Below are positions 5,189 through 59,724 of a stretch of DNA of 64,000 nt, piece after piece. Made by a program: the position numbers and the translations under genes. The number at the start of each line of letters is the position of its first letter. Within the stretch, counting starts at the first letter, position 1. Below the pieces are notes generated by a model, which was not told the origin of the DNA, made no database searches, and saw only the letters and a program-made list of their open reading frames with translations. Source of the stretch: an uncultured bacterium (GTDB lineage: Bacteria > Poribacteria > WGA-4E > WGA-3G); NCBI GenBank assembly GCA_964523645.1, contig CAZGAW010000002.1, positions 30,253 to 94,252 on the forward strand, read 5' to 3'.

Positions 5189-8100
5189 ATGTTACCCGTA
5201 TCACGCGCAATTTTTCCTTATTCATATTTATGTTATTTTTTTCTCCTCACGCTGAACCTGCCTGTCCAGCCTATAAACGCAGCCGATCACGAAGGCGTAG
5301 CAAATCCGCCGCTTCCAACGGCTAACGACTCAGGCAGCGAAACGCAAACATTAATATTCGGGACAACCTCAACAGAAACCTTCAGTTTTGAAGATGTTTA
5401 TCGCATAGAACTCAGTTTAAATGTATCGGGAAATATTGAAATCATTGCTACAGAGGATAATGCCATCGCCGTCACGCTTGAAAAACAGGCACAGGCTACA
5501 AACACAGAACAAGATGACCTGGTTCGCGATTATCTTGATAACATTACCTTGAGAGGAACGCGAAGTGATAACACACTCCAGTTAACGATACGACTGCCGG
5601 GAAATTCTCCTCAAACCGAACCAAACCCACTTTCTAATATAGGCGAATCACAAGCGATACGCTCTGATGGACTTCAACTGAAATGTACAATTAAAACCCC
5701 AGCGGATGTCGCTGTTAAACTCCAGGCAAAAGTTGGAGATATACACCTTCAGCGTATCCGAGGGAAGATAGAAGCTTCGACAGGGACAGGAAACGTCCAT
5801 TTAAGTGAAACCTTAGGCAACTATAACATCAGTGTAACCCAGGGCAACATTGACGGGAAAATTTTGCTGACCCACGGACAAAACAAGTTGGAAACCCAAA
5901 ATGGCGCAATTGGATTGGTAATACTTGACCGTGTTGCAGCACCCATGGATATAACCGCTCAAGGGGGCAGCATCCGTTTACGACTTCCTGAGAATTATGC
6001 TGCGGATGTTGAATTTGAGAGTGAGAAACAGCAAATCGTTATTAATTTGCCCGTACAACTGGACGAGGAAACCGGATTAACCCTTATTAACGACGGGGGT
6101 CCACTGTTCCGGTTGAAAGCCACCGACGCGATTTCTCTACTACCGAGTTCACCAGGCGGCGAAAACACACCCATAGATGCTGAAGCGGATCCATTCATAG
6201 ATGCCGTTCAACCTGTCCCACAAATAGCAGCCCACCCCACTATTGATGGCGATTTATCTGAAATCGCTTGGCAATCAGCCGCGCGACTCTCCCCGTTCCA
6301 AAATCCAGATGGTACTGATGTGCCAAACAATCCAACTGAAACTTTTTTAATGTGGGATGCCGAGAATTTTTATGTCGGTGTAAAAGCCTATCTGTCTGAT
6401 TCATATCTTCCGTATATCTCACAAACGCAGCAGGATTCACCAATTTGGGAGGACGAATGTATCGAAATCCTAATTGATTCTAATCCGGAAACTGATACCT
6501 ATTATCATCTTGTCATCAATCCAATTAACGCGTATTTTGACCAGCAGGTGAATACATCTGGCGAGCCCAATTTTCGGTTTGCACCTCATGATGTCCAACG
6601 GACTTTAAGCCAGAAAACAATGCAAACGGCGTTCAAAGCGGATAGCGCGTGGAACTCAGAGGCGAAAGTTGCCAGCCAAATTAACAGCACTTTTTGGAGT
6701 CTTGAAGTTTCACTTCCGCGTAAAATGTTAGAATCCGTTTCAAAAGTGGATTCGCAGCCGACATCCCCTTTTGAAAACAAGTGGCTTTTTAATATCCACC
6801 GTAAGATGCACAGTAGCAATATGAAGAGCCTTATACCTGCTACGTCCAGAGAATATAGTTACTGGCTGCCAATTTACGATAACGAGCATCCGTGGTGGCC
6901 GCATTCGCCACAAGAGTATACGGGACCGCTTTCAAAACGCAATGGACCCGCAATGGGTGTCTTAGAATTCATAGCGACCCCGCCTACCGCTGAAGATTTT
7001 GCATCCGAAACAAAATTTCAGGTTGCTGCTATTGAAATTAAAGGGAACACCACGATTCCAACAGAGGTCATCCAACAGTCACTTCCCATCCAACCTGGGG
7101 ATATTATCACAAGTCCGCAGCTTTCTTGGTTGATCGCGGAATTGGGGGAACAGGACCGGTTCCAAGACGTGCGTTTGGAAACTAAGCAGGTCAGTATTGA
7201 CAGTGAAGAAACCATTAACAGTCAGCAATCAGAAATCAGTAACCAGCAGGCAGGTGTGAATGCATCGGAAACCTCTGTACCGATGGCTGAAAACCGACAA
7301 TTGAAAGCCATTCCAAGTGTCAGTTTGCATATCCGAGTTACAGAAACCCTTGTGCTTTTTGTCGAGCAAATCGAGATCAAAGGAAATAGGAGTTTCCCTG
7401 CGCAATTCATTAAAGAGTGGTTTCAGTTAGAATCCGGCTATCTCGCTGTTGCAGTTGTTATACTAAAACAACAATTAATTGCTGATTTTTATTCAAATCG
7501 CGGATATGAATTCGCCACGGTTACGTATCAATCTACCGACAATGTACTTGAATTTAACGTCAACGAGGGAACATTGCACGAAATTCGTTTCACTGGTAAC
7601 ACGCAAATCTCGCGGGCGGAACTGTTGTCAGCACTTGACTTAAAGACTGAAGATAACGATGAAAAACAAGGTTCACAAACTTCGGATATCTACCATCATG
7701 CGCTTGGTCAATCGAAAATAAACCGTATGCGCAAAGAGCTCAGCGAAAACAGCGAACATTTCAGATCAATACGGGATTGGCGTGTTCAGCGCGAAGGTGG
7801 AAAAAACATCATGATTGTTGAAATTGAAGAACGTCCATTAGTGAGACCGGGGGGGTTCCCAATTCTTCAATTCAATCGTGTTCACGGGTTAATGCTTGGC
7901 GCGGGGGGAAGACTCTCGACGCATCTCACGGGTAAGGAACAGGTTTTCGGTTCAATAAGCCGTGGATTTTCGAGCAAAATATGGAACTATCACGCCGGTA
8001 TAGAAAAAGGGGTCCTTAAACGGCAGCCCCTCAGGTTCGGAGGTAGTTTCTATAAACTCACCGATATTAGCTCCAGCGTCTATTTGGGGCCTACTGAGGT

Positions 8101-8968
8101 TAATCTGAGTGCTGCTTATTACGGTTTCGCACTTCAGGATTATTACGAGCGTCAGGGCTCGCGCGGATGGATAACGTATGCACCATCAGAATCGACCTAT
8201 CTTAAAATGGAATTCACAGGCGAGAGACACGGTAACCTTTCCAAATCGACGGATTGGAGTTACTTAAACCGAAATCGACTCAAGCGCGGGAATTCGCGGA
8301 TTAACCGTGGACACTTGAGAAGCCTTTCTCTCGTTTATGCCTTTGATACACGAGACCACAAATCCGCTATCACACGGCATTTTCATACCTTGTTTCGTGC
8401 AAATGAACGGACCCGACGCGGGTGGCGCGGTCAATTTGTAATTGAGATGGCAGGACAGGACTTTGGCGGGGACTACACCTTTAGTCGTTTTGGATTTGAA
8501 TTGGCACGCTACACACCTTTGTCGAATCTACATCACTTAAACGTTCGGATTGGCGGCGATTTTTCTGATGCACCCCTACCCAGACAACGCCTCCTGCATC
8601 TTGGCGGTGCTAATAACCTGCGTGGTTACAATTTTAACGCCTTCGCTGGGGATAACAGGCTTCTGATTAACCTTGAGTATCGACTCATCAAAGAGATAAT
8701 TCCGAGCGATCAAGATGCTGTAATCGGGTGGACGCTCAGTTGTTTCTTGGATGCGGGTAATGTGTGGTGGCATGATGATATAACTTCTGATCTTGAGAAC
8801 TTTATAACGCAGATCAAAACGTCAATCGGGGTCGGAGGCTCTGTTTTTGTAGACCCATTCGGGAACTCTGCCCCCTGGAGCCTTGGGGTTGAAGTGGCAG
8901 AACCCCTTAACGCATCTTTTTCCTTACGAAATCCGAGCATCATTCTGCGCTTGGATCGTATGTTTTAA
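5189..8968 (+). CDS. large outer-membrane fusion protein: signal peptide, DUF4097/toastrack-like, CBM9-like, POTRA repeats, Omp85 (D15) beta-barrel
   Basis: 1259 aa. GDIHLQRIRGKIEASTGTGNVHL-type beta-solenoid repeats; IDGDLSEIAWQSA...WDAENFYVGV (CBM9-like); IEIKGNTTIP and IEIKGNRSFP (POTRA); aromatic-rich C-terminal barrel ending in F. Confidence 0.6.
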   Translation: MLPVSRAIFPYSYLCYFFLLTLNLPVQPINAADHEGVANPPLPTANDSGSETQTLIFGTTSTETFSFEDVYRIELSLNVSGNIEIIATEDNAIAVTLEKQAQATNTEQDDLVRDYLDNITLRGTRSDNTLQLTIRLPGNSPQTEPNPLSNIGESQAIRSDGLQLKCTIKTPADVAVKLQAKVGDIHLQRIRGKIEASTGTGNVHLSETLGNYNISVTQGNIDGKILLTHGQNKLETQNGAIGLVILDRVAAPMDITAQGGSIRLRLPENYAADVEFESEKQQIVINLPVQLDEETGLTLINDGGPLFRLKATDAISLLPSSPGGENTPIDAEADPFIDAVQPVPQIAAHPTIDGDLSEIAWQSAARLSPFQNPDGTDVPNNPTETFLMWDAENFYVGVKAYLSDSYLPYISQTQQDSPIWEDECIEILIDSNPETDTYYHLVINPINAYFDQQVNTSGEPNFRFAPHDVQRTLSQKTMQTAFKADSAWNSEAKVASQINSTFWSLEVSLPRKMLESVSKVDSQPTSPFENKWLFNIHRKMHSSNMKSLIPATSREYSYWLPIYDNEHPWWPHSPQEYTGPLSKRNGPAMGVLEFIATPPTAEDFASETKFQVAAIEIKGNTTIPTEVIQQSLPIQPGDIITSPQLSWLIAELGEQDRFQDVRLETKQVSIDSEETINSQQSEISNQQAGVNASETSVPMAENRQLKAIPSVSLHIRVTETLVLFVEQIEIKGNRSFPAQFIKEWFQLESGYLAVAVVILKQQLIADFYSNRGYEFATVTYQSTDNVLEFNVNEGTLHEIRFTGNTQISRAELLSALDLKTEDNDEKQGSQTSDIYHHALGQSKINRMRKELSENSEHFRSIRDWRVQREGGKNIMIVEIEERPLVRPGGFPILQFNRVHGLMLGAGGRLSTHLTGKEQVFGSISRGFSSKIWNYHAGIEKGVLKRQPLRFGGSFYKLTDISSSVYLGPTEVNLSAAYYGFALQDYYERQGSRGWITYAPSESTYLKMEFTGERHGNLSKSTDWSYLNRNRLKRGNSRINRGHLRSLSLVYAFDTRDHKSAITRHFHTLFRANERTRRGWRGQFVIEMAGQDFGGDYTFSRFGFELARYTPLSNLHHLNVRIGGDFSDAPLPRQRLLHLGGANNLRGYNFNAFAGDNRLLINLEYRLIKEIIPSDQDAVIGWTLSCFLDAGNVWWHDDITSDLENFITQIKTSIGVGGSVFVDPFGNSAPWSLGVEVAEPLNASFSLRNPSIILRLDRMF
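7219..7310. repeat. heptad-armed palindromic element inside CDS, in frame
   Basis: CAGTCAG CAATCAG AAATCAG TAACCAG CAGGCAGGTGTG-loop-GAAACCTCTG-...GCTGAAA ACCGACA ATTGAAA GCCA; almost the same inner core as the intergenic copy at 20740-20780; encodes NSQQSEISNQQAGVNASETSVPMAENRQLKA in an inter-POTRA linker. Confidence 0.65.
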
Positions 8969-10357: not shown

Positions 10358-11266
10358 ATGATATACAGCAAATTCTATTTTCGTATATCCCTTTTACTCT
10401 TCCTCCCTGTACTTTTAGGTGGGTGCGGTCTCGCGAAGCTATCGAGAATTCAGGGGGAAGGCGACCTGACTGTCGTAGAAGCCACCCTTGAAGGGAATAT
10501 CGGTACGCTTGAACGGCTATCTAAGATTGGGAATAAGAATCTCATTGTTAAGACGGCTCGCGCCTACTCATCTTATGCCGGCTTTATTGAAGATAAAATG
10601 GAAGAGGCTGAAATAGCAGGCGACTATGAGACTGCAGACAAGATGCGTGCACAGGCAATTGCGCTCTATACCCGTTCTGAGGGATACGCGCTCAAGGCTT
10701 TAGCGAAGTCCGATAAAACCTTCAATGAAGCAAGAACTGTTGATCTCGAGGCGTTTCAAAAAGCACTTCAGAAGCTGAAAAAGCAGGATGTCGAACCTCT
10801 GTTTTGGACGGCTTATTCGATTGCACGCGGCATTAGCCTCCAGAAGGACGATCCGATGCAGGTCATTGACCTGGCTCGGGTTGAGTTGATGATGGGGCGC
10901 GTGCTTGAATTGGATGAAACCTTTTACTTCGGCAGCGCGCATCTGTTTTATGCCGTCTATTACGGTGACCGGGCCCCGACAATCGGGGGAGACCCGGAGA
11001 AGGCAAAGGAACATATCGCACATGTAGATAGAATTAATGACGGCAAATTCTTGATGAGCAAACTCTATCTCGCTCGCTACTACGCCTACCCTAAACAGGA
11101 CCTGAAACTTTACAAACAATCGTTGCAAGAAGTTCTTGACGCACCATCGGACATTTATCCTGGAGAAGAAGCCGCAACTTCGTTAGCAAAATCAAGATCC
11201 AAACGCTGGCTCGATCAGGCGGATGTCCTTTTTGACCCAGAATTGGAAGAAGGAGGTACCGAATAA
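10358..11266 (+). CDS. TRAP transporter TatT-component-like TPR lipoprotein
   Basis: Lipobox LLGGC, all-helical, ...YYGDRAPTIGGDPEKAKEHIAH... resembles the TatT family; immediately upstream of and coupled to (ATAATG) a DctP-type binding protein. Confidence 0.5.
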   Translation: MIYSKFYFRISLLLFLPVLLGGCGLAKLSRIQGEGDLTVVEATLEGNIGTLERLSKIGNKNLIVKTARAYSSYAGFIEDKMEEAEIAGDYETADKMRAQAIALYTRSEGYALKALAKSDKTFNEARTVDLEAFQKALQKLKKQDVEPLFWTAYSIARGISLQKDDPMQVIDLARVELMMGRVLELDETFYFGSAHLFYAVYYGDRAPTIGGDPEKAKEHIAHVDRINDGKFLMSKLYLARYYAYPKQDLKLYKQSLQEVLDAPSDIYPGEEAATSLAKSRSKRWLDQADVLFDPELEEGGTE

Positions 11267-17646: not shown

Positions 17647-17707
17647 TATACGGAACGAAACTTTCAAGCACCAACCCACCTGAACGAACCGCAAGGAAAA
17701 GTAAAAA
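17647..17707 (+). promoter_or_regulatory. extended leader motif (TATACGGAACG...CACCTGAACGAACCGCAAGGAAAAGTAAAAA) directly before ATG
   Basis: The last 31 nt are nearly identical to 241-272. Confidence 0.7.
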
Positions 17708-36868: not shown

Positions 36869-37097
36869 GTTTTGTCGCTTTTCCTTGAAAAAATCGTTGA
36901 ATTCCTTTAAAATTCTTGAAATGTGGTTAGAGCAATGTGCCTATTTCTTTTTGGGTATAGCGGAATTCGAGAAAGGCACGTGAACCCCGAAGTCCACTTA
37001 AAGTTGTCCAAAGATTAGTCTTCATCGCATAACGCGCGTAACTCGTAACGAAATGGAGAGCGGATTCGAGAAAGGCGCGTGAAGCACAAACTCACGT

Positions 37098-37123
37098 CAT
37101 TTAACCGCAAGGAATAATTAAAA
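37098..37123 (+). promoter_or_regulatory. leader motif copy (TCATTTAACCGCAAGGAATAATTAAAA) directly before ATG
   Basis: CCGCAAGG-N12-ATG spacing as at 273 and 17708. A 25-bp direct repeat GCGGA(A)TTCGAGAAAGGC(A/G)CGTGAA occurs at 36960 and 37060 upstream. Confidence 0.6.
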
Positions 37124-37915
37124 ATGGTTGAACTTACACGGGAAGACATTGAATTTTTCAAAAATGAAGGGTATTTGGTGAAGCGAAACGTCCTGGACCC
37201 GGCATTGATGGAACGGGCACGGGCAAGACTCTGGGATGGTGCACCTGAAGGGCGTAAACGTGAGGACCCTGACACTTGGATAGGCCCCTTCACCCCTGAA
37301 GAGGAAAACATTGACAAAAACAACAACCGGCGCGGGTTCCGGTGGAACTTCCGTGAACCGGGTGGCGAAGATTGGATGGTTCAACTGCTCGCGACCGATC
37401 CAAACGTCTGGCGGATGGCTGAACAGTTTTTAGGTGAGGGAAATTTGGTGCAACCCGACCGTGTGCGTGGCATCTATTGCACGCTACCTTACGGCGATGT
37501 CCCGAAGAAATCGATCGGGTGTCACGTGGATGCGCATCCGTTTCATCTCGGTGCTGTCGGGTATATTGATGATGTGCCACCGGAAGGTGGCGGATTTACC
37601 GTTTGGCCAGGAAGCCATAAAACCTTCTATTACGATTACAATTCCCAATACAAGAACGAGCCGACACCGCAATACGAGATTGATCGTGAACGTCTCAGCA
37701 GAGAGTCAGGTGTTGAATGCTACGGGAACGCAGGGGATGTTGTCTTCTGGCACCATCGCATCGGTCATGCCGCCGGACATAACTATTCGCGACAGATCCG
37801 GCAGGCAGTTCTGTACGACTTCCGAAAGACGGAATTGGAGCAAACGCAGGAAGAGCCACCGAACGAGGATATGTGGCGAGATTGGCCCGGCATCAAGGCG
37901 TTGGAAAATTTTTAA
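37124..37915 (+). CDS. phytanoyl-CoA dioxygenase (PhyH)-family Fe(II)/2-oxoglutarate oxygenase
   Basis: LTREDIEFFKNEGYLV start, HVDAHP (HxD), distal HHRIGHAAGHN. Confidence 0.7.
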   Translation: MVELTREDIEFFKNEGYLVKRNVLDPALMERARARLWDGAPEGRKREDPDTWIGPFTPEEENIDKNNNRRGFRWNFREPGGEDWMVQLLATDPNVWRMAEQFLGEGNLVQPDRVRGIYCTLPYGDVPKKSIGCHVDAHPFHLGAVGYIDDVPPEGGGFTVWPGSHKTFYYDYNSQYKNEPTPQYEIDRERLSRESGVECYGNAGDVVFWHHRIGHAAGHNYSRQIRQAVLYDFRKTELEQTQEEPPNEDMWRDWPGIKALENF

Positions 37916-38078
37916 ATATACCTTGCGGGAGAACAACGCGGATTAGAACTTTGACGCACCTTGTTCTCAAGTCGCCTGCGCCGGTGTTGGAGGAAAAGGT
38001 CTGGCCCCAGCGTGTATTCAAAAACTTGAGTTCTTCCGAACTGTCTTTGGGGTTGATTGGTTGGGTCATAAGCGGAGC

Positions 38079-38098
38079 TGGCGTGGCGGTGGCCCTAA
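38079..38098 (+). repeat. 20-nt direct repeat, copy 1 (TGGCGTGGCGGTGGCCCTAA)
   Basis: 19/20 identical to 39895-39914. Confidence 0.8.
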
Positions 38099-38263
38099 TT
38101 AGAAATGAAGCCTAACAGTTGATTAGAATTGAGAACAGGGCGAGTGTCGTGAGGGAGAGGAGTATAGCGAACCGAAATAGCGTTGCCTTTTCCATTGACA
38201 AAACTTATCTTAACTTTGCGAAATTGTGGCCCAAATAAGCGTATGCACTACAGTTTTCATGTT

Positions 38264-38299
38264 AAAAAAAAAGGCGGCCCCACGTGAATAAAACCGCCT
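38264..38299 (-). terminator. rho-independent terminator of the 331-aa gene
   Basis: The minus strand reads AGGCGG-loop-CCGCCT followed by T9 (A-run 38264-38272 on the plus strand), 17 nt after the stop. Confidence 0.65.
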
Positions 38300-38315
38300 A
38301 TAAAAATAGTCTGGT

Positions 38316-39311
38316 TCAAGATTTAGGCAATCTGTTCCCCGTATTTTGTCTTAAAAGTTCATCTCTCACCTCTGCAATACGCTGTTTTAGCTCTTTTTCT
38401 ATGCTCATTCTTAACCATAGAAAATCATCTGAAGGAATTGCGTTCTTGAGTATTTTAGAACTGGCTTCTTCTGGGGGGAGTTTGAGATAATCAGGATCCT
38501 GACAACAATAGATAGCAATGGCATTTATACCATCTTTCACATGCCCCAGTGAATTCTCCTTAAAAAATCCAAGTTGACATATCCAGCGGACTGCACTACC
38601 ATAACTCATGTTCATGAGATGGCCAGATACACCGTAGTCATAAAACTCACATATCTCCCCCATAAAATTGTTCACAGTGTCCATCAAAGTTCTTAAATCA
38701 GAAACCATAAAAGAGTTAGAGTCGCCATATTCATATTTGTCATCAAGATGGGCGACCTTAGAATCGACATAATTCCAGAGATTTTTCATTGACTCTGCCG
38801 CCTTTATATGAGACTCAAGACGTTCTAAAAAGAGTGTAAACTCTTCGGTGTCTGCTTTGATGCTCGTATGCAAGTTACATATTTGGGTTTTTATCCTTTT
38901 CATAGAAATGGCTTTTCCAACCCCTGAAGATTTATCTGTTGTTAATTTCCGTAAGTTCACGAGTAAGGAATCGAAAGTTGATAATGTTAGATGTATCCAC
39001 AGAGGGGGATTCAGATCACGGAGGTCTTTATGATACTTAATTAAATCTTCTTCGGCGGCATGATAAGTTAAGTCAGACGGTTTTACATCCGCAAAGGCTA
39101 AGTATAGCCCGCGCTGATAATGCGCTATGAGAAATAGTTCCTTAAATTTCTTATACGATGAACTAAAGTCGCTTGCAAATTTCTGAATCTGCTTATCAAT
39201 GCTGTCAACCTTTTGGGGAGTTGCCTTTTGGCGAACGTCTTCATATTTAGCAATTATGTTCGCTTCAAGTTGTTCAAAATCTTCTGATTCCATATTTATG
39301 TCAAGTCTCAT
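38316..39311 (-). CDS. hypothetical all-helical protein, 331 aa, no recognisable family
   Basis: Long ORF in an A+T-rich segment, SD GGAAGG upstream, own terminator; no catalytic motif recognised by eye. Confidence 0.55.
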   Translation of the reverse strand: MRLDINMESEDFEQLEANIIAKYEDVRQKATPQKVDSIDKQIQKFASDFSSSYKKFKELFLIAHYQRGLYLAFADVKPSDLTYHAAEEDLIKYHKDLRDLNPPLWIHLTLSTFDSLLVNLRKLTTDKSSGVGKAISMKRIKTQICNLHTSIKADTEEFTLFLERLESHIKAAESMKNLWNYVDSKVAHLDDKYEYGDSNSFMVSDLRTLMDTVNNFMGEICEFYDYGVSGHLMNMSYGSAVRWICQLGFFKENSLGHVKDGINAIAIYCCQDPDYLKLPPEEASSKILKNAIPSDDFLWLRMSIEKELKQRIAEVRDELLRQNTGNRLPKS

Positions 39312-39340
39312 TAGGGTTTACCTTCCTTTGTTCTTGTAAT

Positions 39341-39368
39341 AGAGCGGTCCCACGCGAATAGAACCGCC
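39341..39368. repeat. second copy of the 38272-38299 hairpin (GAGCGGTCCCACGCGAATAGAACCGCCC)
   Basis: About 22/28 identical to AGGCGGCCCCACGTGAATAAAACCGCCT; the two copies bracket the 331-aa gene. Confidence 0.6.
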
Positions 39369-39894
39369 CTTTTCTATTTTCAGAGGGATCTCTACTTCAA
39401 AATCACCCTCACTGTTTTTCCAAGGCACCCCACGTCGTGCTGAGTTTTCGGCGGAGTATAGAAGGGGCCGATGGGGCAGATGTCTCGGGTTCGGGGAACA
39501 ACCAATCGCTTCACCGATTGAAAATCTGAAAAGGTTGGTAGCAACCCCAACGTGTAGACTTTCACCCCTGTTCCGAAGTATTACGCGCGCTACCGATACA
39601 TATTTAGAGTGGTGTCGCACTTCGCACTTACACCCGCACTACCGGGTCGGTTAGGACTCTGCTAGGGTGTGGCAGAGGTAGTGATTCCTAACCAAGTGCT
39701 TGATTACTATTAAGCCACACTTTCGGGGGAATGTCAAGTTTTTTTCAACAACACCCTACGCGCGTCCTTTCGCTTGTCGACGGCGCACACCGGGGCTGTT
39801 AGGGGCGGGCTGTCTTTATCGGTGCAGGTGTGGCTTTATTCACAAGCGTGCGGTGAAGTCTCAGATGGCATGTGTTGTGTGTCAACATAGCGAA

Positions 39895-39914
39895 ATGGCG
39901 TGGCGGTGGTCCTA
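39895..39914 (+). repeat. 20-nt direct repeat, copy 2 (TGGCGTGGCGGTGGTCCTAA)
   Basis: See 38079-38098. Confidence 0.8.
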
Positions 39915-40124
39915 AGTCTGATGACTTGCCTCATTTTTGACTTTTGTGTTATACTTTTCATTAACTTGGCGGATAGGAGTTTCACCTTGGCACCCCTCGT
40001 GTCGAGTCCTATCCAATCTCGTGAAACAGGTTGCATGCCAAATCGCCAAGGGAAGCCTAATTTGACATACTACTAACGGATAACTAATTATTGATCTGGC
40101 ACTTCACTCTATAGGAGAATTATC

Positions 40125-40982
40125 ATGAAAGAACCCCAATTTACTCAGCATCCAACGGAAATATTTGGTTATCCTTTTACTAACAAAAGCTCATACGCAC
40201 AAGAGGCGAGGGAAGAACAGTTCTGTCCCTTCTTAAAGGGTGAATGTAAAAAACCCCGAAAAAGTGAACCTGAAGTTAAAATTGGAACTTGCACACTTGG
40301 TTACAAAGGTAGTTTTCTCGAAAAGGTAACGCCTATTATTGTATGCCCTCATCGTTTTGAAGTAGCAGGTGTCTACAATACGATTCAGAAATTATATTTT
40401 GGCAATTTACCAGATGACTATCAGATAAGATGGGCATCTGAGGTATCTTGTGGAGGGGCAGGAAGTATTGATTTTGTCGCTGCCAAAATAAAAGGAGAGG
40501 AAATAGAGGATTTTCTATGTGTTGAAGTTCAAACGGCCGGGACCACTGGAACGCCTTGGGATGCAGTTACAGACTTTAAACAGACCGGAGGCTTTCAGGA
40601 GGAAAGCTATAACTATGGAATCAATTGGGCGAATCAGTTTATCAAAACAATGATGCAGCAGGTCTACAAAAAAGGGATGGTAATTACGAGTTGGGGCAAG
40701 AAAATTGTGTTTGTTATTCAAGATGTCGCACTCGCCTATATTCAGTCTACTACTGATACCCAGGATTTACATGAGGCAAGAGATAGTGATGCTATCCATT
40801 TTTGTACATTTCGGATGGTATGGGATGAAAATTCAAAGGCTTGGCAGCTGAAATTTGACCAGCAAGTGAGCACAGATATAGAAGGCATTCGGAAAATCTT
40901 AGGCGGGGCTCATGAAGATGAATTCCCCACCATCAGTGAGTTTGAAAATAATATCAATAGGCGATTAAATTTCCAAAGCTAA
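40125..40982 (+). CDS. type II restriction endonuclease, NotI-family-like
   Basis: N-terminal EIFGYPF...CPFLKGECKK...GTCTL...IIVCPHRF reproduces the Cys4 metal-site pattern and spacing of the NotI family; convergent with and overlapping a DNA methyltransferase. Confidence 0.6.
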   Translation: MKEPQFTQHPTEIFGYPFTNKSSYAQEAREEQFCPFLKGECKKPRKSEPEVKIGTCTLGYKGSFLEKVTPIIVCPHRFEVAGVYNTIQKLYFGNLPDDYQIRWASEVSCGGAGSIDFVAAKIKGEEIEDFLCVEVQTAGTTGTPWDAVTDFKQTGGFQEESYNYGINWANQFIKTMMQQVYKKGMVITSWGKKIVFVIQDVALAYIQSTTDTQDLHEARDSDAIHFCTFRMVWDENSKAWQLKFDQQVSTDIEGIRKILGGAHEDEFPTISEFENNINRRLNFQS

Positions 40983-42113
40983 TTGATCGAGATTTAACCG
41001 ATTTCTGGCAATTTCCGCATATTCTTCGCTTAACTCAATTCCAAGTCCCTGTCTATTAAGTTCATTCGCAGCCACTAACGTACTTCCTGTACCCATAAAG
41101 GGATCAAGGATAACGCTCCCAATTCTACTGGTCGCTTTAATCGGTAGCTCCAGTAGCTTTGTCGGAAAAACAGCGTAATGAACATCTTTTCTCCATTCAT
41201 CCTCTGGAACGATATTCCAAATATCACTCGGTAAATGTCCTTTAGCGGTGCTTGCCGTAATATAAAAACCTTTTGTCTTTAATTCCTTGGCACGTCCACT
41301 GACCTCCAAATTATCACTATGAAAGGTCCGTTGCTCACCTCTAATCGTCATTCTAAAATCAACTAACTCACCTTCTCTCATTCTTTCTAACGTCTCGTCA
41401 AGGGCTCTGATCGCCGCTGTGCGTTCTTGTTCATCTAATTCCTTAGACTCAAGAATCTGTCTACGGTATTTTTTCCCGCTGACGCCCGTGGCAGAAATAA
41501 CCTCTTTGCCATTTATTGATGGAAGTTTTTTCGGTTTAATCCTGACCCTGTCAGTATCGTAATAGTATCTCTTATTCTTAACAAAGTGAAATACATGTTC
41601 ATGGACATCTCTGAGTCTATCTTTCGCACTTTGCGTTCCTCTAATTTGATGCCATATCACATCATTCCTGAGAATCCATCCATCCTCCTGCATTGCGAGC
41701 GCAACCCGCCAAGGCATCCCCATCAGATTTTTGTTATGATATTTATCTCCTAAATTTAACCATACGGACCCATCCGGTTTTAATATTCTCTTTACCTGAA
41801 GGAAAATTCCAGCAAGTCTTTTCACATATTCTTCAGGTGTTTTTTCCTCACCAATCATCACATCAGTATCGTTTCCATTTGTGTGATATTTTCTCATTTG
41901 CCAGTACGGAGGTGAGGTAATGACGCAACCAATGCTCTCATCAGGGATTTCAGCCAAAATATCTTCACAATTCCCTATCAATACCCCATTTTTCTGATTT
42001 TCACTGAGGACCTTAGAAATTATCTGTTGATTTGTCATATTAATATTTCCTTCTGATTTTGGTAAGTTAGAATCTAATCCAACGTACTGTTTATCACTAA
42101 CACAATTGGTCAA
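40965..42113 (-). CDS. DNA methyltransferase, beta-class N4-cytosine/N6-adenine (N6_N4_Mtase type)
   Basis: Catalytic motif IV ITSPPYW near the N-terminus and AdoMet motif I ILDPFMGTGST near the C-terminus (beta-group order). Confidence 0.85.
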   Translation of the reverse strand: MTNCVSDKQYVGLDSNLPKSEGNINMTNQQIISKVLSENQKNGVLIGNCEDILAEIPDESIGCVITSPPYWQMRKYHTNGNDTDVMIGEEKTPEEYVKRLAGIFLQVKRILKPDGSVWLNLGDKYHNKNLMGMPWRVALAMQEDGWILRNDVIWHQIRGTQSAKDRLRDVHEHVFHFVKNKRYYYDTDRVRIKPKKLPSINGKEVISATGVSGKKYRRQILESKELDEQERTAAIRALDETLERMREGELVDFRMTIRGEQRTFHSDNLEVSGRAKELKTKGFYITASTAKGHLPSDIWNIVPEDEWRKDVHYAVFPTKLLELPIKATSRIGSVILDPFMGTGSTLVAANELNRQGLGIELSEEYAEIARNRLNLDQLALEI

Positions 42114-42221
42114 AATGTAGATTCCAGGATTTTCAGAGGGTTACCTCGTTATAGAATAGATGCCTCGTCCTACTGGAATAGGCGGTGGAGTGTTCCAGCA
42201 CCCCACCAACGAGGTCATACT

Positions 42222-42251
42222 ATTATACCATAAATCTAAAAGGATTCTCAA
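42222..42251 (-). promoter_or_regulatory. sigma70-type promoter (TTGAGA-18 nt-TGg TATAAT) for the methyltransferase
   Basis: The reverse complement reads TTGAGAatccttttagatttatggTATAAT, about 105 nt upstream of ATG 42113. Confidence 0.5.
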
Positions 42252-42420
42252 GAAAAATCAATGCCCATCTGAGGCATCCAGCGGGCTAGCGGTGTACCTG
42301 CTGCGTCGCGGGCTGCACGAATGTCGATCCCATTTTCTCGTGGTTCGTTTTCGTCAAAATGTTCCAGTCTTACCCATTGGATTTTGAGATCATGTCAGCA
42401 GTATGTTCAAGTTCTTCCGA

Positions 42421-42708
42421 TTAAACTTCAATGACCGATACTCCCTTCTCTGTGATTCTCCAGTGACCTCCGATAAAGCCATAAACATACTTATCAGCTT
42501 CAAGAAGGTCAAGAATGCCAGGAATCAAACGATTTTTTCCGTATAGGTGCCGCGGTATGTCAAGCTGTTCGCAGATTTCTTTCTGGGTCAAGGTTTCTCT
42601 ATGCTCACCTGTAGAATCTAAAGGTTGTTGATATAACACCAATAGCACTGCCCGCTTGAGTATTTCTAACCCGTAAGCGGCAAACTCGTTTCGTGTGTTG
42701 TTATTCAT
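42421..42708 (-). CDS. small winged-helix-like DNA-binding protein candidate
   Basis: 95 aa; LTQKEICEQLDIP...GILDLLEADKYV resembles a wHTH; located between the HNH-like and MTase genes. Confidence 0.4.
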   Translation of the reverse strand: MNNNTRNEFAAYGLEILKRAVLLVLYQQPLDSTGEHRETLTQKEICEQLDIPRHLYGKNRLIPGILDLLEADKYVYGFIGGHWRITEKGVSVIEV

Positions 42709-42911
42709 AAATCCACTTTTCCCCTTCCCCCGATATGCCGAGGTTCTTCTGACCTGAGCATTCCCCCCTAAAAAGAGCAGGGTGAGGATTGAAGAGCCAA
42801 TCCGACCTATCTGGGTGTTATGTGCGAGTCGTAAGCCAGTTCTCGACCGTCTTTATGAGTTCTGACATATTTCTTAAGTATCTTGTCATCGCAGATTTTT
42901 TGTTCAGAATA

Positions 42912-43406
42912 TCATTTGCCATATCTATCATATAAAACCTTTGCCTTCTGATAATCAATAAGGCAACTACCATGAGGAATAGCCGTTACAAACTGTCGGA
43001 TCTCTGCAGGAGAGAAAGACCAGTTAGAAGGAAGGTTTAACTTCCTTTTAGCAAGTCCATCTGCCGAGTTGCAGTCTCCACAAATAACAGTCTCTAAAAA
43101 ACGATCCAATGTTGAATGATCATGATGCCTTGTAAGAGAAGCAATCCATCCCCAGAAAACTTTACCTCCTGGCTTTCGTTTCGTCCAGCGTAGGATCTCA
43201 CGTTTATTTCTACCACATCCAGGACAAAACCAAGATTCAGGGGTTTCCTTCCAAAGGATCGGGCAATGTCCTCCATCATAGTTTTGGTATTCACTGTCTG
43301 TGGGAATACGCTGATGTTTCATCAAGAGGTCCTTCGGTGGAAAATCAGTCAGCAGTATTGAGCACCTTGAGCAACTCGTTGGAAGAATGGCGGGGGCGTT
43401 AGACAT
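42912..43406 (-). CDS. HNH / endonuclease VII-like zinc-finger nuclease candidate
   Basis: FCPGCGR ... LTRHHDHS ... ICGDCNSADG gives the CxxC...HxDH...CxxCN pattern of the T4 EndoVII/HNH superfamily. Confidence 0.5.
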   Translation of the reverse strand: MSNAPAILPTSCSRCSILLTDFPPKDLLMKHQRIPTDSEYQNYDGGHCPILWKETPESWFCPGCGRNKREILRWTKRKPGGKVFWGWIASLTRHHDHSTLDRFLETVICGDCNSADGLAKRKLNLPSNWSFSPAEIRQFVTAIPHGSCLIDYQKAKVLYDRYGK

Positions 43407-43430
43407 CCAAAAAAAACTGTTGGACCCACC

Positions 43431-43637
43431 TTAGCTGAAAAGCGATGCTTCATTTCGGCATTGCAGCAAGGGCATTCCGTGCGAGATATTTGTGAAATCC
43501 TCGGTGTCAACCGGGGCAGTTTCTATTATCAACCCAAAGAAGATCCGTCCGAAGCGGTTCTGCTCGCTGAAATAGAGAAACTTTCGGGACTGTACTGCCA
43601 TCGGTTTTTTAGACCACTGTCTAAACCAAGATTGTGA
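43431..43637 (+). pseudogene. IS3-family transposase OrfB 5' fragment
   Basis: Translation ...GHSVRDICEILGVNRGSFYYQPKEDPSEAVLLAEIEKLSG resembles the HTH_21 / N-terminus of IS3 OrfB; no start, truncated, and no DDE domain follows. Confidence 0.5.
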
Positions 43638-43668
43638 GACAATACAATCTACTTGAAAGGAGCATCCG

Positions 43669-43860
43669 ATGGCGAAACGCAAACGAAGAAACTTCACCCC
43701 CCAGTTTAAAGCGGAGGTTGTTCTGGAGGCTCTCCGCGGTGAAAGTTCGCAAGCAGAGCTGTGTCCTCAACATAACCTCAGCGATGAACAACTCTCGAAG
43801 TGGAAGCAGCAAGTCGTTGAAAATATGACATCTGTGTTTGTCTCATGTAGGTCGGTGTAG
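43669..43860 (+). pseudogene. IS3-family OrfA (HTH_Tnp_1) fragment
   Basis: MAKRKRRNFTPQFKAEVVLEALRGESSQAELCPQHNLSDEQLSKWKQQVVE is the canonical IS3/IS911 OrfA N-terminus; it is truncated and sits after, not before, the OrfB fragment. Confidence 0.65.
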
Positions 43861-59690: not shown

Positions 59691-59724
59691 TACGCCTAAA
59701 CGAACCGCAAGGAACATTAAAAAA
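59691..59724 (+). promoter_or_regulatory. leader motif copy (TACGCCTAAACGAACCGCAAGGAACATTAAAAAA) directly before ATG of the ECF sigma gene
   Basis: Same AACGAACCGCAAGG-N12/13-ATG design. Confidence 0.65.

Follow-up and report, generated by a model that had tools for sequence, protein, structure and literature searches.

The stretch of DNA analysed here, referred to below as the window, comprises 64,000 nucleotides (64 kb) of contig CAZGAW010000002.1 (positions 30,253 to 94,252) from an uncultured bacterium of the Poribacteria. Between a PhyH gene and a NotI-like restriction-modification (R-M) pair, it carries a minus-strand gene for a 331-aa protein, which is the subject of this work. The open reading frame (ORF) begins with ATG and is preceded by a GGAAGG Shine-Dalgarno sequence; the Shine-Dalgarno portion of its leader is kept in all close relatives. 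One hairpin lies downstream of the gene and a similar one upstream, a non-coding spacer separates the gene from the R-M pair, and a 20-nt direct repeat is found once in this spacer and once on the other side of the gene. The positions of these features are collected in Table 1. An earlier reading of the same DNA, hereafter the original prediction, had already described the ORF with its own Shine-Dalgarno sequence and terminator, a hairpin copy on either side and about 0.55 kb of non-coding DNA beside it. All these elements were recovered: the downstream hairpin scored as a minus-strand terminator, the hairpin sequence is present in two copies, and the non-coding DNA contains no Pfam-matching ORF and no Rfam family.

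The central part of the protein (aa 102–224) matched the Pfam family HEPN_AbiU2 (PF18734) with 28.0 bits (E 1.8e-6), a score that marginally exceeds the curated cut-off of this family (26.8 bits). The same region scored 35.4 bits in the relative P0019 (E 1e-8), 26.7 in P0045 and 24.5 in P0013, and the match was still seen at 15.5 bits in P0065, which is 31% identical. When a diverse alignment of the family was considered, six of 22 members matched PF18734 at E <= 0.05 and no other family recurred. Nine residues are invariant down to 32% identity (N119, R121, K122, D126, S136, H148, W179, Y181 and H188). The last of these stands in the context xVAHLDD or YNIHLED, with no R or K conserved 5–7 residues upstream; HEPN families that keep the H without the R exist (PMC3710099). 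The weak R-x3-H (RLESH) noted as a possible motif in the original prediction is not conserved in the family and was discarded as a HEPN motif.

AlphaFold2 gave an all-helical model with a pLDDT (predicted local distance difference test) of 77 in one of five models. The family comprises 65 clusters at 90% identity, all the named ones from Candidatus Poribacteria, and a second subfamily is likewise poribacterial. A profile search of 1.84 billion representatives returned 17 hits and did not reach the canonical AbiU2 members. No hit to the protein family was obtained in JGI metagenome contigs or IMG/VR, tblastn against plasmids gave nothing, and sequence searches of the PDB were empty or meaningless. 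An hhalign comparison with neighbouring Ymh-type HEPN proteins detected no relation, but this comparison is uninformative. The protein is all-helical, stands alone and is restricted to Candidatus Poribacteria, and its central ~125 residues most likely fall within the AbiU2 branch of HEPN proteins. We consider the HEPN assignment itself, drawn from a sequence profile, as probable.

Eight contexts of family members were read (the window and the related loci L001–L003 and L012–L015), and all eight are variable regions, unrelated to each other, carrying defence or mobile-element genes. Methyltransferases (MTases) lie within 5 kb in four of them, and a SacI-type restriction endonuclease (REase) was also found. 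Further context genes encode AAA_15/21 ATPases, a ResIII helicase, HicB, PIN and DUF4268 proteins, integrases, Rep3 and transposases, and Ymh-type HEPN proteins are encoded near the relatives in L003, L012 and partly L014. No partner gene common to the contexts was identified.

The DNA homology between the window and these loci ends within about 20–60 nt of the ORF (Table 1). The closest relative, in L001, is 81% identical in amino acids and 90% in DNA. Between copies, synonymous divergence (dS) was 0.15–0.45 and the ratio of nonsynonymous to synonymous divergence (dN/dS) 0.3–0.6. Because neutral flanks inherited in place would still align at such dS values, the gene must have moved recently between contexts as a gene-sized unit. 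The alignments thus show a gene-sized exchange, and the gene evolves fast, as is often the case in defence genes. The PF18734 match, the adjacency to R-M genes, the defence and mobile-element neighbourhoods of the relatives and the gene-sized exchange all support the suggestion of the original prediction that this is a single-gene defence candidate of abortive-infection (Abi) type. The gene is most likely a fast-evolving, sponge-symbiont-specific relative of AbiU2/HEPN proteins.

Two arrangements were observed in these neighbourhoods. In three of the eight contexts, the AbiU2-like gene is preceded by a Ymh-type HEPN gene at a distance of two genes at most (L003:4784-5524, L012:275-1063 and L014:5523-5927). 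In L014 (3700-8900), about a dozen small co-directional ORFs, among them HicB, two DUF4268 genes and the AbiU2-like gene, sit within a complex I operon, between its nuoD-like and nuoE-like genes.

The boundaries of the blocks around the gene were resolved by comparison with related loci, among them those fetched through the neighbouring REase (L019–L022). They fall at 38252/38253, the end of an IS3-family insertion sequence (IS), at ~39340-39390, the edge of the gene block, and at 39942, the edge of the R-M block. Copies of the repeat that forms the left boundary occur three times in L019 and also in L020–L022 and L012–L014. At the right boundary, the truncated OrfA matches PF01527 (HTH_Tnp_1; E 5.6e-12), and the left (IRL) and right (IRR) inverted repeats agree at 19 of 27 positions. 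The element has the features of the IS3 family: its termini are TG...CA, its terminal inverted repeats are imperfect and its OrfA carries HTH_Tnp_1. These ends face outwards and bracket a 5.3-kb block (38253-43590) that contains the gene, the spacer, the R-M pair, a winged helix-turn-helix gene and an HNH-like gene. Solo IS3-family ends are scattered across these islands, and mini-elements made of IRL, an OrfA stub and IRR (190–260 nt) were seen beside the NotI-like R-M block at L019:9459-9714 and L020:9403-9592 (minus).

The R-M block is 96% identical in DNA to that of L019. The slot beside the NotI-like REase is occupied by an HNH_2/ScoMcrA-like gene in L019 (5782-6765) and by a GmrSD gene in L020–L022 (L020:5172-6857). 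The second-line defence gene paired with this R-M block thus varies from genome to genome. In a second strain (L005 and L009), positions 37841-40200 are 100% identical to the window while the flanking PhyH gene differs by 3–10% (per 100 nt), and the island must therefore have been exchanged or swept recently. This tract of identity ends inside PhyH and not at the 20-mer. Logan contigs from several samples break at 38204 or 38233. These breaks were considered as a structural polymorphism at the edge of the gene and rejected, because the 30-mer shared by the contigs lies within the dispersed IS-end repeat, which accounts for them. Mobility is seen at two levels, that of the gene and that of the island.

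Table 1. Features of the locus and extent of DNA homology with related loci (window coordinates).
Feature	Position	Strand	Remarks
AbiU2-like (probable HEPN-superfamily) gene	38316..39311	minus	331 aa; residues ~102-224 match PF18734
Conserved leader with Shine-Dalgarno ATTACAAGAACAAAGGAAGGTAAACCCTA	39312..39340	minus	common to L001 and L012
Hairpin D with T9 tail, intrinsic terminator	38262..38299	minus	12-bp stem, many G.U pairs, UCAC tetraloop
Hairpin U, 5' leader	39341..39370	minus	13-bp stem, UCGC tetraloop, no U-tail
Non-coding spacer block	39371..39941	no strand	restricted to this locus; holds 20-mer B near its right edge
20-mer copy A TGGCGTGGCGGTGGCCCTAA	38079..38098	+	between PhyH gene and IS end fragment, outside the IS-bounded block
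20-mer copy B TGGCGTGGCGGTGGTCCTAA	39896..39915	+	in spacer, 27 nt left of R-M block boundary
IRR, right-end fragment of IS3-family element, ...GCACTACA	38197..38252	+	~56-nt dispersed repeat, 11 nt from terminator tail
IRL, left end TGTACTGCC... and truncated OrfA (HTH_Tnp_1), same IS3-family element	43591..43860	+	
R-M block	39942..42419		NotI-like REase 40125-40982 (+); N4/N6 MTase 40965-42113 (-)
Homology with L002, L003 and L013	39328/9-38323		Shine-Dalgarno-to-stop region
Homology with L014	39329-38357		Shine-Dalgarno-to-stop region
Homology with L012	39340-38308		
Homology with L001	about 39390-38297		

The hairpin core GCGGYCCCACGYGAATARAACCGCC has exactly two copies in the window, 38274-38298 and 39344-39368, which share one strand and agree at 22 of 25 positions. 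No match to the core was obtained in shuffled sequences, and the 12-nt loop core has no third copy in the window. Both structures are specific to the sense RNA, with folding energies of -15.4 kcal/mol (z -4.3) for hairpin D and -19.3 kcal/mol (z -5.2) for hairpin U, as compared to -9.1 and -6.4 kcal/mol respectively for the antisense RNAs. The stems of the two copies differ by a C-to-U change opposite G and an A-to-G change opposite U, and pairing survives both changes in the sense RNA only. The downstream copy is a standard intrinsic (rho-independent) terminator. The upstream copy must belong to the 5' leader because it lies 30 nt before the ATG, leaves no room for a promoter after it and has no U-tail. 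These data show that both hairpins are elements of the gene's own transcript. The simplest guess for their likeness is a local duplication.

Outside the window, the hairpin was found in L001, at the corresponding position of the same leader, and is absent from the other six of the seven related loci; no hit was obtained in JGI metagenome contigs or IMG/VR. L001 does not contain the downstream copy because the next gene begins 27 nt on. When L001:5928-5955 is compared to 39341-39368 of the window, the inner 14 nt are exact reverse complements, with conservation of the 7-nt arms and of the flanks on both sides. This difference reads as a small hairpin-mediated inversion between the 7-nt arms of close relatives.

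The spacer matched nothing among the fetched loci, in Rfam or, for its ORFs, in Pfam, and is specific to this locus. The ~525 nt from the upstream hairpin to 20-mer B likewise matched no Rfam family and contain neither an ORF with a Pfam match nor a tandem repeat of any significance, the tandem-repeat scan (TRF) finding just two trivial arrays of 15–23 nt. The spacer folds only slightly better than shuffled sequences (z -1.5 and -2.4). A decayed partner gene was considered as its source and rejected, as tblastn with 28 neighbour proteins from other loci was empty and the spacer ORFs have no Pfam match. On the minus strand, a promoter-like TTGACA-N17-CTTAAT is found ~370 nt upstream (39737-39709). 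On the plus strand, a 58-aa ORF with a hydrophobic N-terminus (39900-40076) starts at a GTG within 20-mer B and has no family match; the corresponding GTG of copy A opens a frame of six codons only.

The 20-mer TGGCGTGGCGGTGGYCCTAA also occurs exactly twice in the window, with 19 of 20 positions identical. The original prediction had reported this repeat and its identity correctly, except that the second copy starts at 39896 and not at 39895. The 20-mer had no match in shuffled sequences, and a local alignment of the two neighbourhoods has sharp edges with no extension past 20 nt (it scored 35, while shuffles reached 26 at most). Direct-repeat pairs of 20 nt or longer that differ at no more than one position number 13 in the window, as compared to 0.17 in Markov shuffles. 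Short dispersed repeats are a habit of this genome, and one extra pair is less special than it appears. Copy A lies ~100 nt beyond the IS end fragment. Seven independent assemblies, from seven samples, continue through both 20-mers with no break or alternative junction there. The 20-mer was found in none of the related loci, in no viral contig (IMG/VR) and in none of the lineage's reference genomes, and the GTDB representative genomes gave one unrelated actinobacterial hit. No recombinase is present near the copies. An empty site with a single 20-mer, which the original prediction had proposed to look for, was seen in none of the assemblies, related loci or reference genomes. The direct repeat is thus real and beyond chance under a simple model, without being an identifiable insertion scar. 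An inserted module bounded by the 20-mers, as the original prediction had suggested, is not supported.

Other repeats were observed in the window and in the related loci. TCACCTGAACGAACCGCAAGG forms a short repeat family of three copies (241-263, 17676-17698 and 59695-59714). An element of ~80 nt ends at the PhyH start codon (37044-37125), contains a local 30-nt direct repeat (36965-36994 and 37064-37093) and recurs with 81–84% identity on another poribacterial contig (L014:8866-8947 and 11172-11246), directly upstream of nuoE-like and nuoG-like genes. In L001, a 48-nt direct repeat (5858-5905 and 8230-8276) is 85% identical between copies and has two small internal hairpins; it starts at the stop codons of two consecutive units and encloses the AbiU2-like gene and a Trypsin_2/DUF4268 gene. 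Its sequence differs from that of the 20-mer, and flanking repeats may recur around family members.

On balance, we lean towards the explanation that this is an AbiU2-like defence-island gene whose hairpins belong to its transcript, which moves both as a gene and with its island, and for which the 20-mer is no scar. The protein would be an effector of abortive-infection type, an RNA-targeting toxin that cleaves or binds RNA with the invariant His188 at its centre, perhaps with the aid of the invariant Arg121/Lys122 and His148. It would act on its own or as a back-up of the R-M pair, and may be silent in healthy cells and become active upon phage infection or upon failure of the neighbouring NotI-like R-M system. 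AbiU2-family HEPN genes are known in R-M operons, and HEPN genes linked to R-M have been proposed to act as layered defence (PMC3710099). A Vibrio integron cassette with an AbiU2 domain was reported to be protective against T4 and T7. The upstream hairpin, a very stable structure within the inherited leader, could insulate from or attenuate read-through, or could stabilise the mRNA of a potentially toxic gene, and IS3-family activity together with homologous recombination may move the gene and the island.

Several observations weigh against this explanation. The PF18734 match is marginal and 16 of the 22 family members miss E 0.05. The canonical Rx4-6H motif is lacking, since its arginine is unconserved although H188 is invariant. 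AlphaFold2 was confident in only one of five models and the domain-only model was poor (pLDDT 47). Foldseek searches of the PDB and BFVD, the structural check put forward with the original prediction, returned no structural neighbour (best E 0.4–0.5), and PADLOC, NCBIfam and PHROGs all gave no hit for the protein. The name-giving protein, Lactococcus AbiUii, is not the protective component of lactococcal AbiU (PMC13064643). Moreover, the promoter-like sequence is a resemblance to the consensus only, and this explanation does not account for the similarity of the two hairpins. The missing arginine, the lack of a structural neighbour and of a PADLOC hit, the marginal Pfam scores with most members unmatched and the precedent of AbiUii would also fit a helical protein without catalytic activity that is simply carried along in defence islands, for instance as a sensor, scaffold, regulator or inactivated HEPN. 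We regard this possibility as rather unlikely but not negligible: His188, Arg121, Lys122, His148 and Asp126 are invariant to 32% identity, which points to an active or binding site under conservation, families of HEPN that have the H and not the R exist, and the defence context is consistent over the loci.

The remaining alternatives concern the repeats. The 1.8-kb segment between the 20-mers (gene and spacer) could be a discrete insertion with att-like sites or target-duplication scars at its ends, as the sharp edges of the two-copy repeat, the 27 nt between 20-mer B and the R-M block boundary and the different 48-nt repeat bracketing the L001 gene and its neighbour would suggest. This is improbable because neither 20-mer is at a block boundary (38252/38253, ~39340-39390 and 39942), copy A being placed so that the segment would include IS debris; in addition, the junctions are uninterrupted in seven samples, the repeat is missing from related loci, reference genomes and viral contigs, no recombinase is nearby and repeats of such size are common in the window. 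It is more doubtful still that the protein has the twin hairpins as its RNA partners in cis, whether as sites of binding or processing or as an antitoxin RNA of type III-like kind. The ORF is indeed flanked by two copies of a hairpin specific to the sense strand, with differences that preserve pairing, and AbiF is neutralised by a neighbouring RNA that carries two repeated motifs (bioRxiv 10.1101/2025.04.15.648962); however, the hairpin is missing in six of the seven other loci, the inner inversion in L001 destroys the extended sense-strand stem, there is no Rfam match and the downstream copy is fully explained as a terminator. A touch less credible again is the narrower version in which the HEPN-like protein recognises or processes the hairpins on its own mRNA, as an autoregulatory or type III-like pair parallel to AbiF and the abiF-motif RNA; if it were true, the L001 inversion would be a natural on/off variant. 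Least probable of all, and very remote, is that the hairpins act at the level of DNA as the ends of a small mobile unit, IS200/IS605-like with a passenger gene or attC-like. The directly oriented hairpins on either side of a single gene, the presence of a tnpB-only IS605-type element 8 kb away and the opposite orientation of the L001 hairpin fit such a unit, but the hairpins of the local tnpB element have a different sequence, the hairpin is at 28 nt far below attC length and lacks core sites, no more copies were found in the window, across ~150 kb from related loci, among JGI metagenome contigs or in IMG/VR, and homology with the relatives does not consistently end at the hairpins. The cassette packaging that the original prediction saw in the hairpins is thus not borne out: they are strand-specific RNA hairpins, a terminator and a leader element.

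Under the favoured explanation, an AbiU2-like gene in a mobile defence island, the gene is a fairly ordinary but real defence-island gene and a divergent addition to the known AbiU2/HEPN kind. It would add to these defence proteins a phylum-restricted, divergent branch with a conserved histidine and no canonical arginine. The locus further illustrates the reshuffling of single defence genes and small islands in populations of sponge symbionts (Poribacteria): homology is gene-sized although synonymous divergence is low, the block edges carry IS3-family debris, and the island is identical in strains with diverged core genes. Sponge symbionts are described as rich in defence genes in two studies (PMC5649159, PMC5099237). 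Finally, the presence of twin hairpins and of a short direct repeat on either side of a gene argues only weakly for a cassette, unless the comparison of loci places boundaries there.

Integron attC sites are imperfect palindromes of ~57–141 nt with core sites, located at the 3' end of the cassette, and cassettes depend on an intI/attI platform. The hairpin described here is unlike them, being 28 nt long without GTTRRRY/RYYYAAC cores, and no integrase is found among the neighbours at 36–44 kb. It also differs from the ends of IS200/IS605 elements or palindrome-associated transposable elements (PATEs) in sharing no hairpins with the local tnpB element and in having two window copies only. As in composite-transposon-like IS-flanked blocks, the 38253-43590 segment is placed between the IRR (left) and IRL (right) of one IS3-family element, and fragments of the same IS adjoin the gene in L013 and are near it in L012 and L014. 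Unlike in a composite transposon, only end fragments remain, and both an intact transposase and the outer ends are missing.

Type III toxin-antitoxin systems, and AbiF with its abiF-motif RNA, resemble the locus in having a structured non-coding stretch with a hairpin upstream of a putative toxin gene and a repeated RNA motif. They differ from it in that the locus has no tandem repeats and no Rfam match, the upstream RNA region is not conserved in relatives, and the second copy of the motif is here downstream, as a terminator. As in known HEPN-R-M pairings (PrrC-PrrI, or AbiJ/AbiF in R-M operons), the gene adjoins a type II R-M pair in a mobile block. In contrast to those operons, it is divergent from the REase gene and 0.8 kb apart from it. 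The linkage of the gene to R-M is therefore loose, since they share no operon and the same R-M block pairs elsewhere with HNH/McrA-like or GmrSD genes. Compared to the AbiU2 (AbiUii) HEPN proteins of PF18734 (Anantharaman et al. 2013, PMC3710099), the family described here has no conserved Rx4-6H arginine, has long helical N- and C-terminal extensions and is tiny and confined to Poribacteria. It resembles them by the profile match over ~125 residues, by its all-helical, stand-alone and R-M-linked nature and by an invariant His at the position expected for the HEPN motif.

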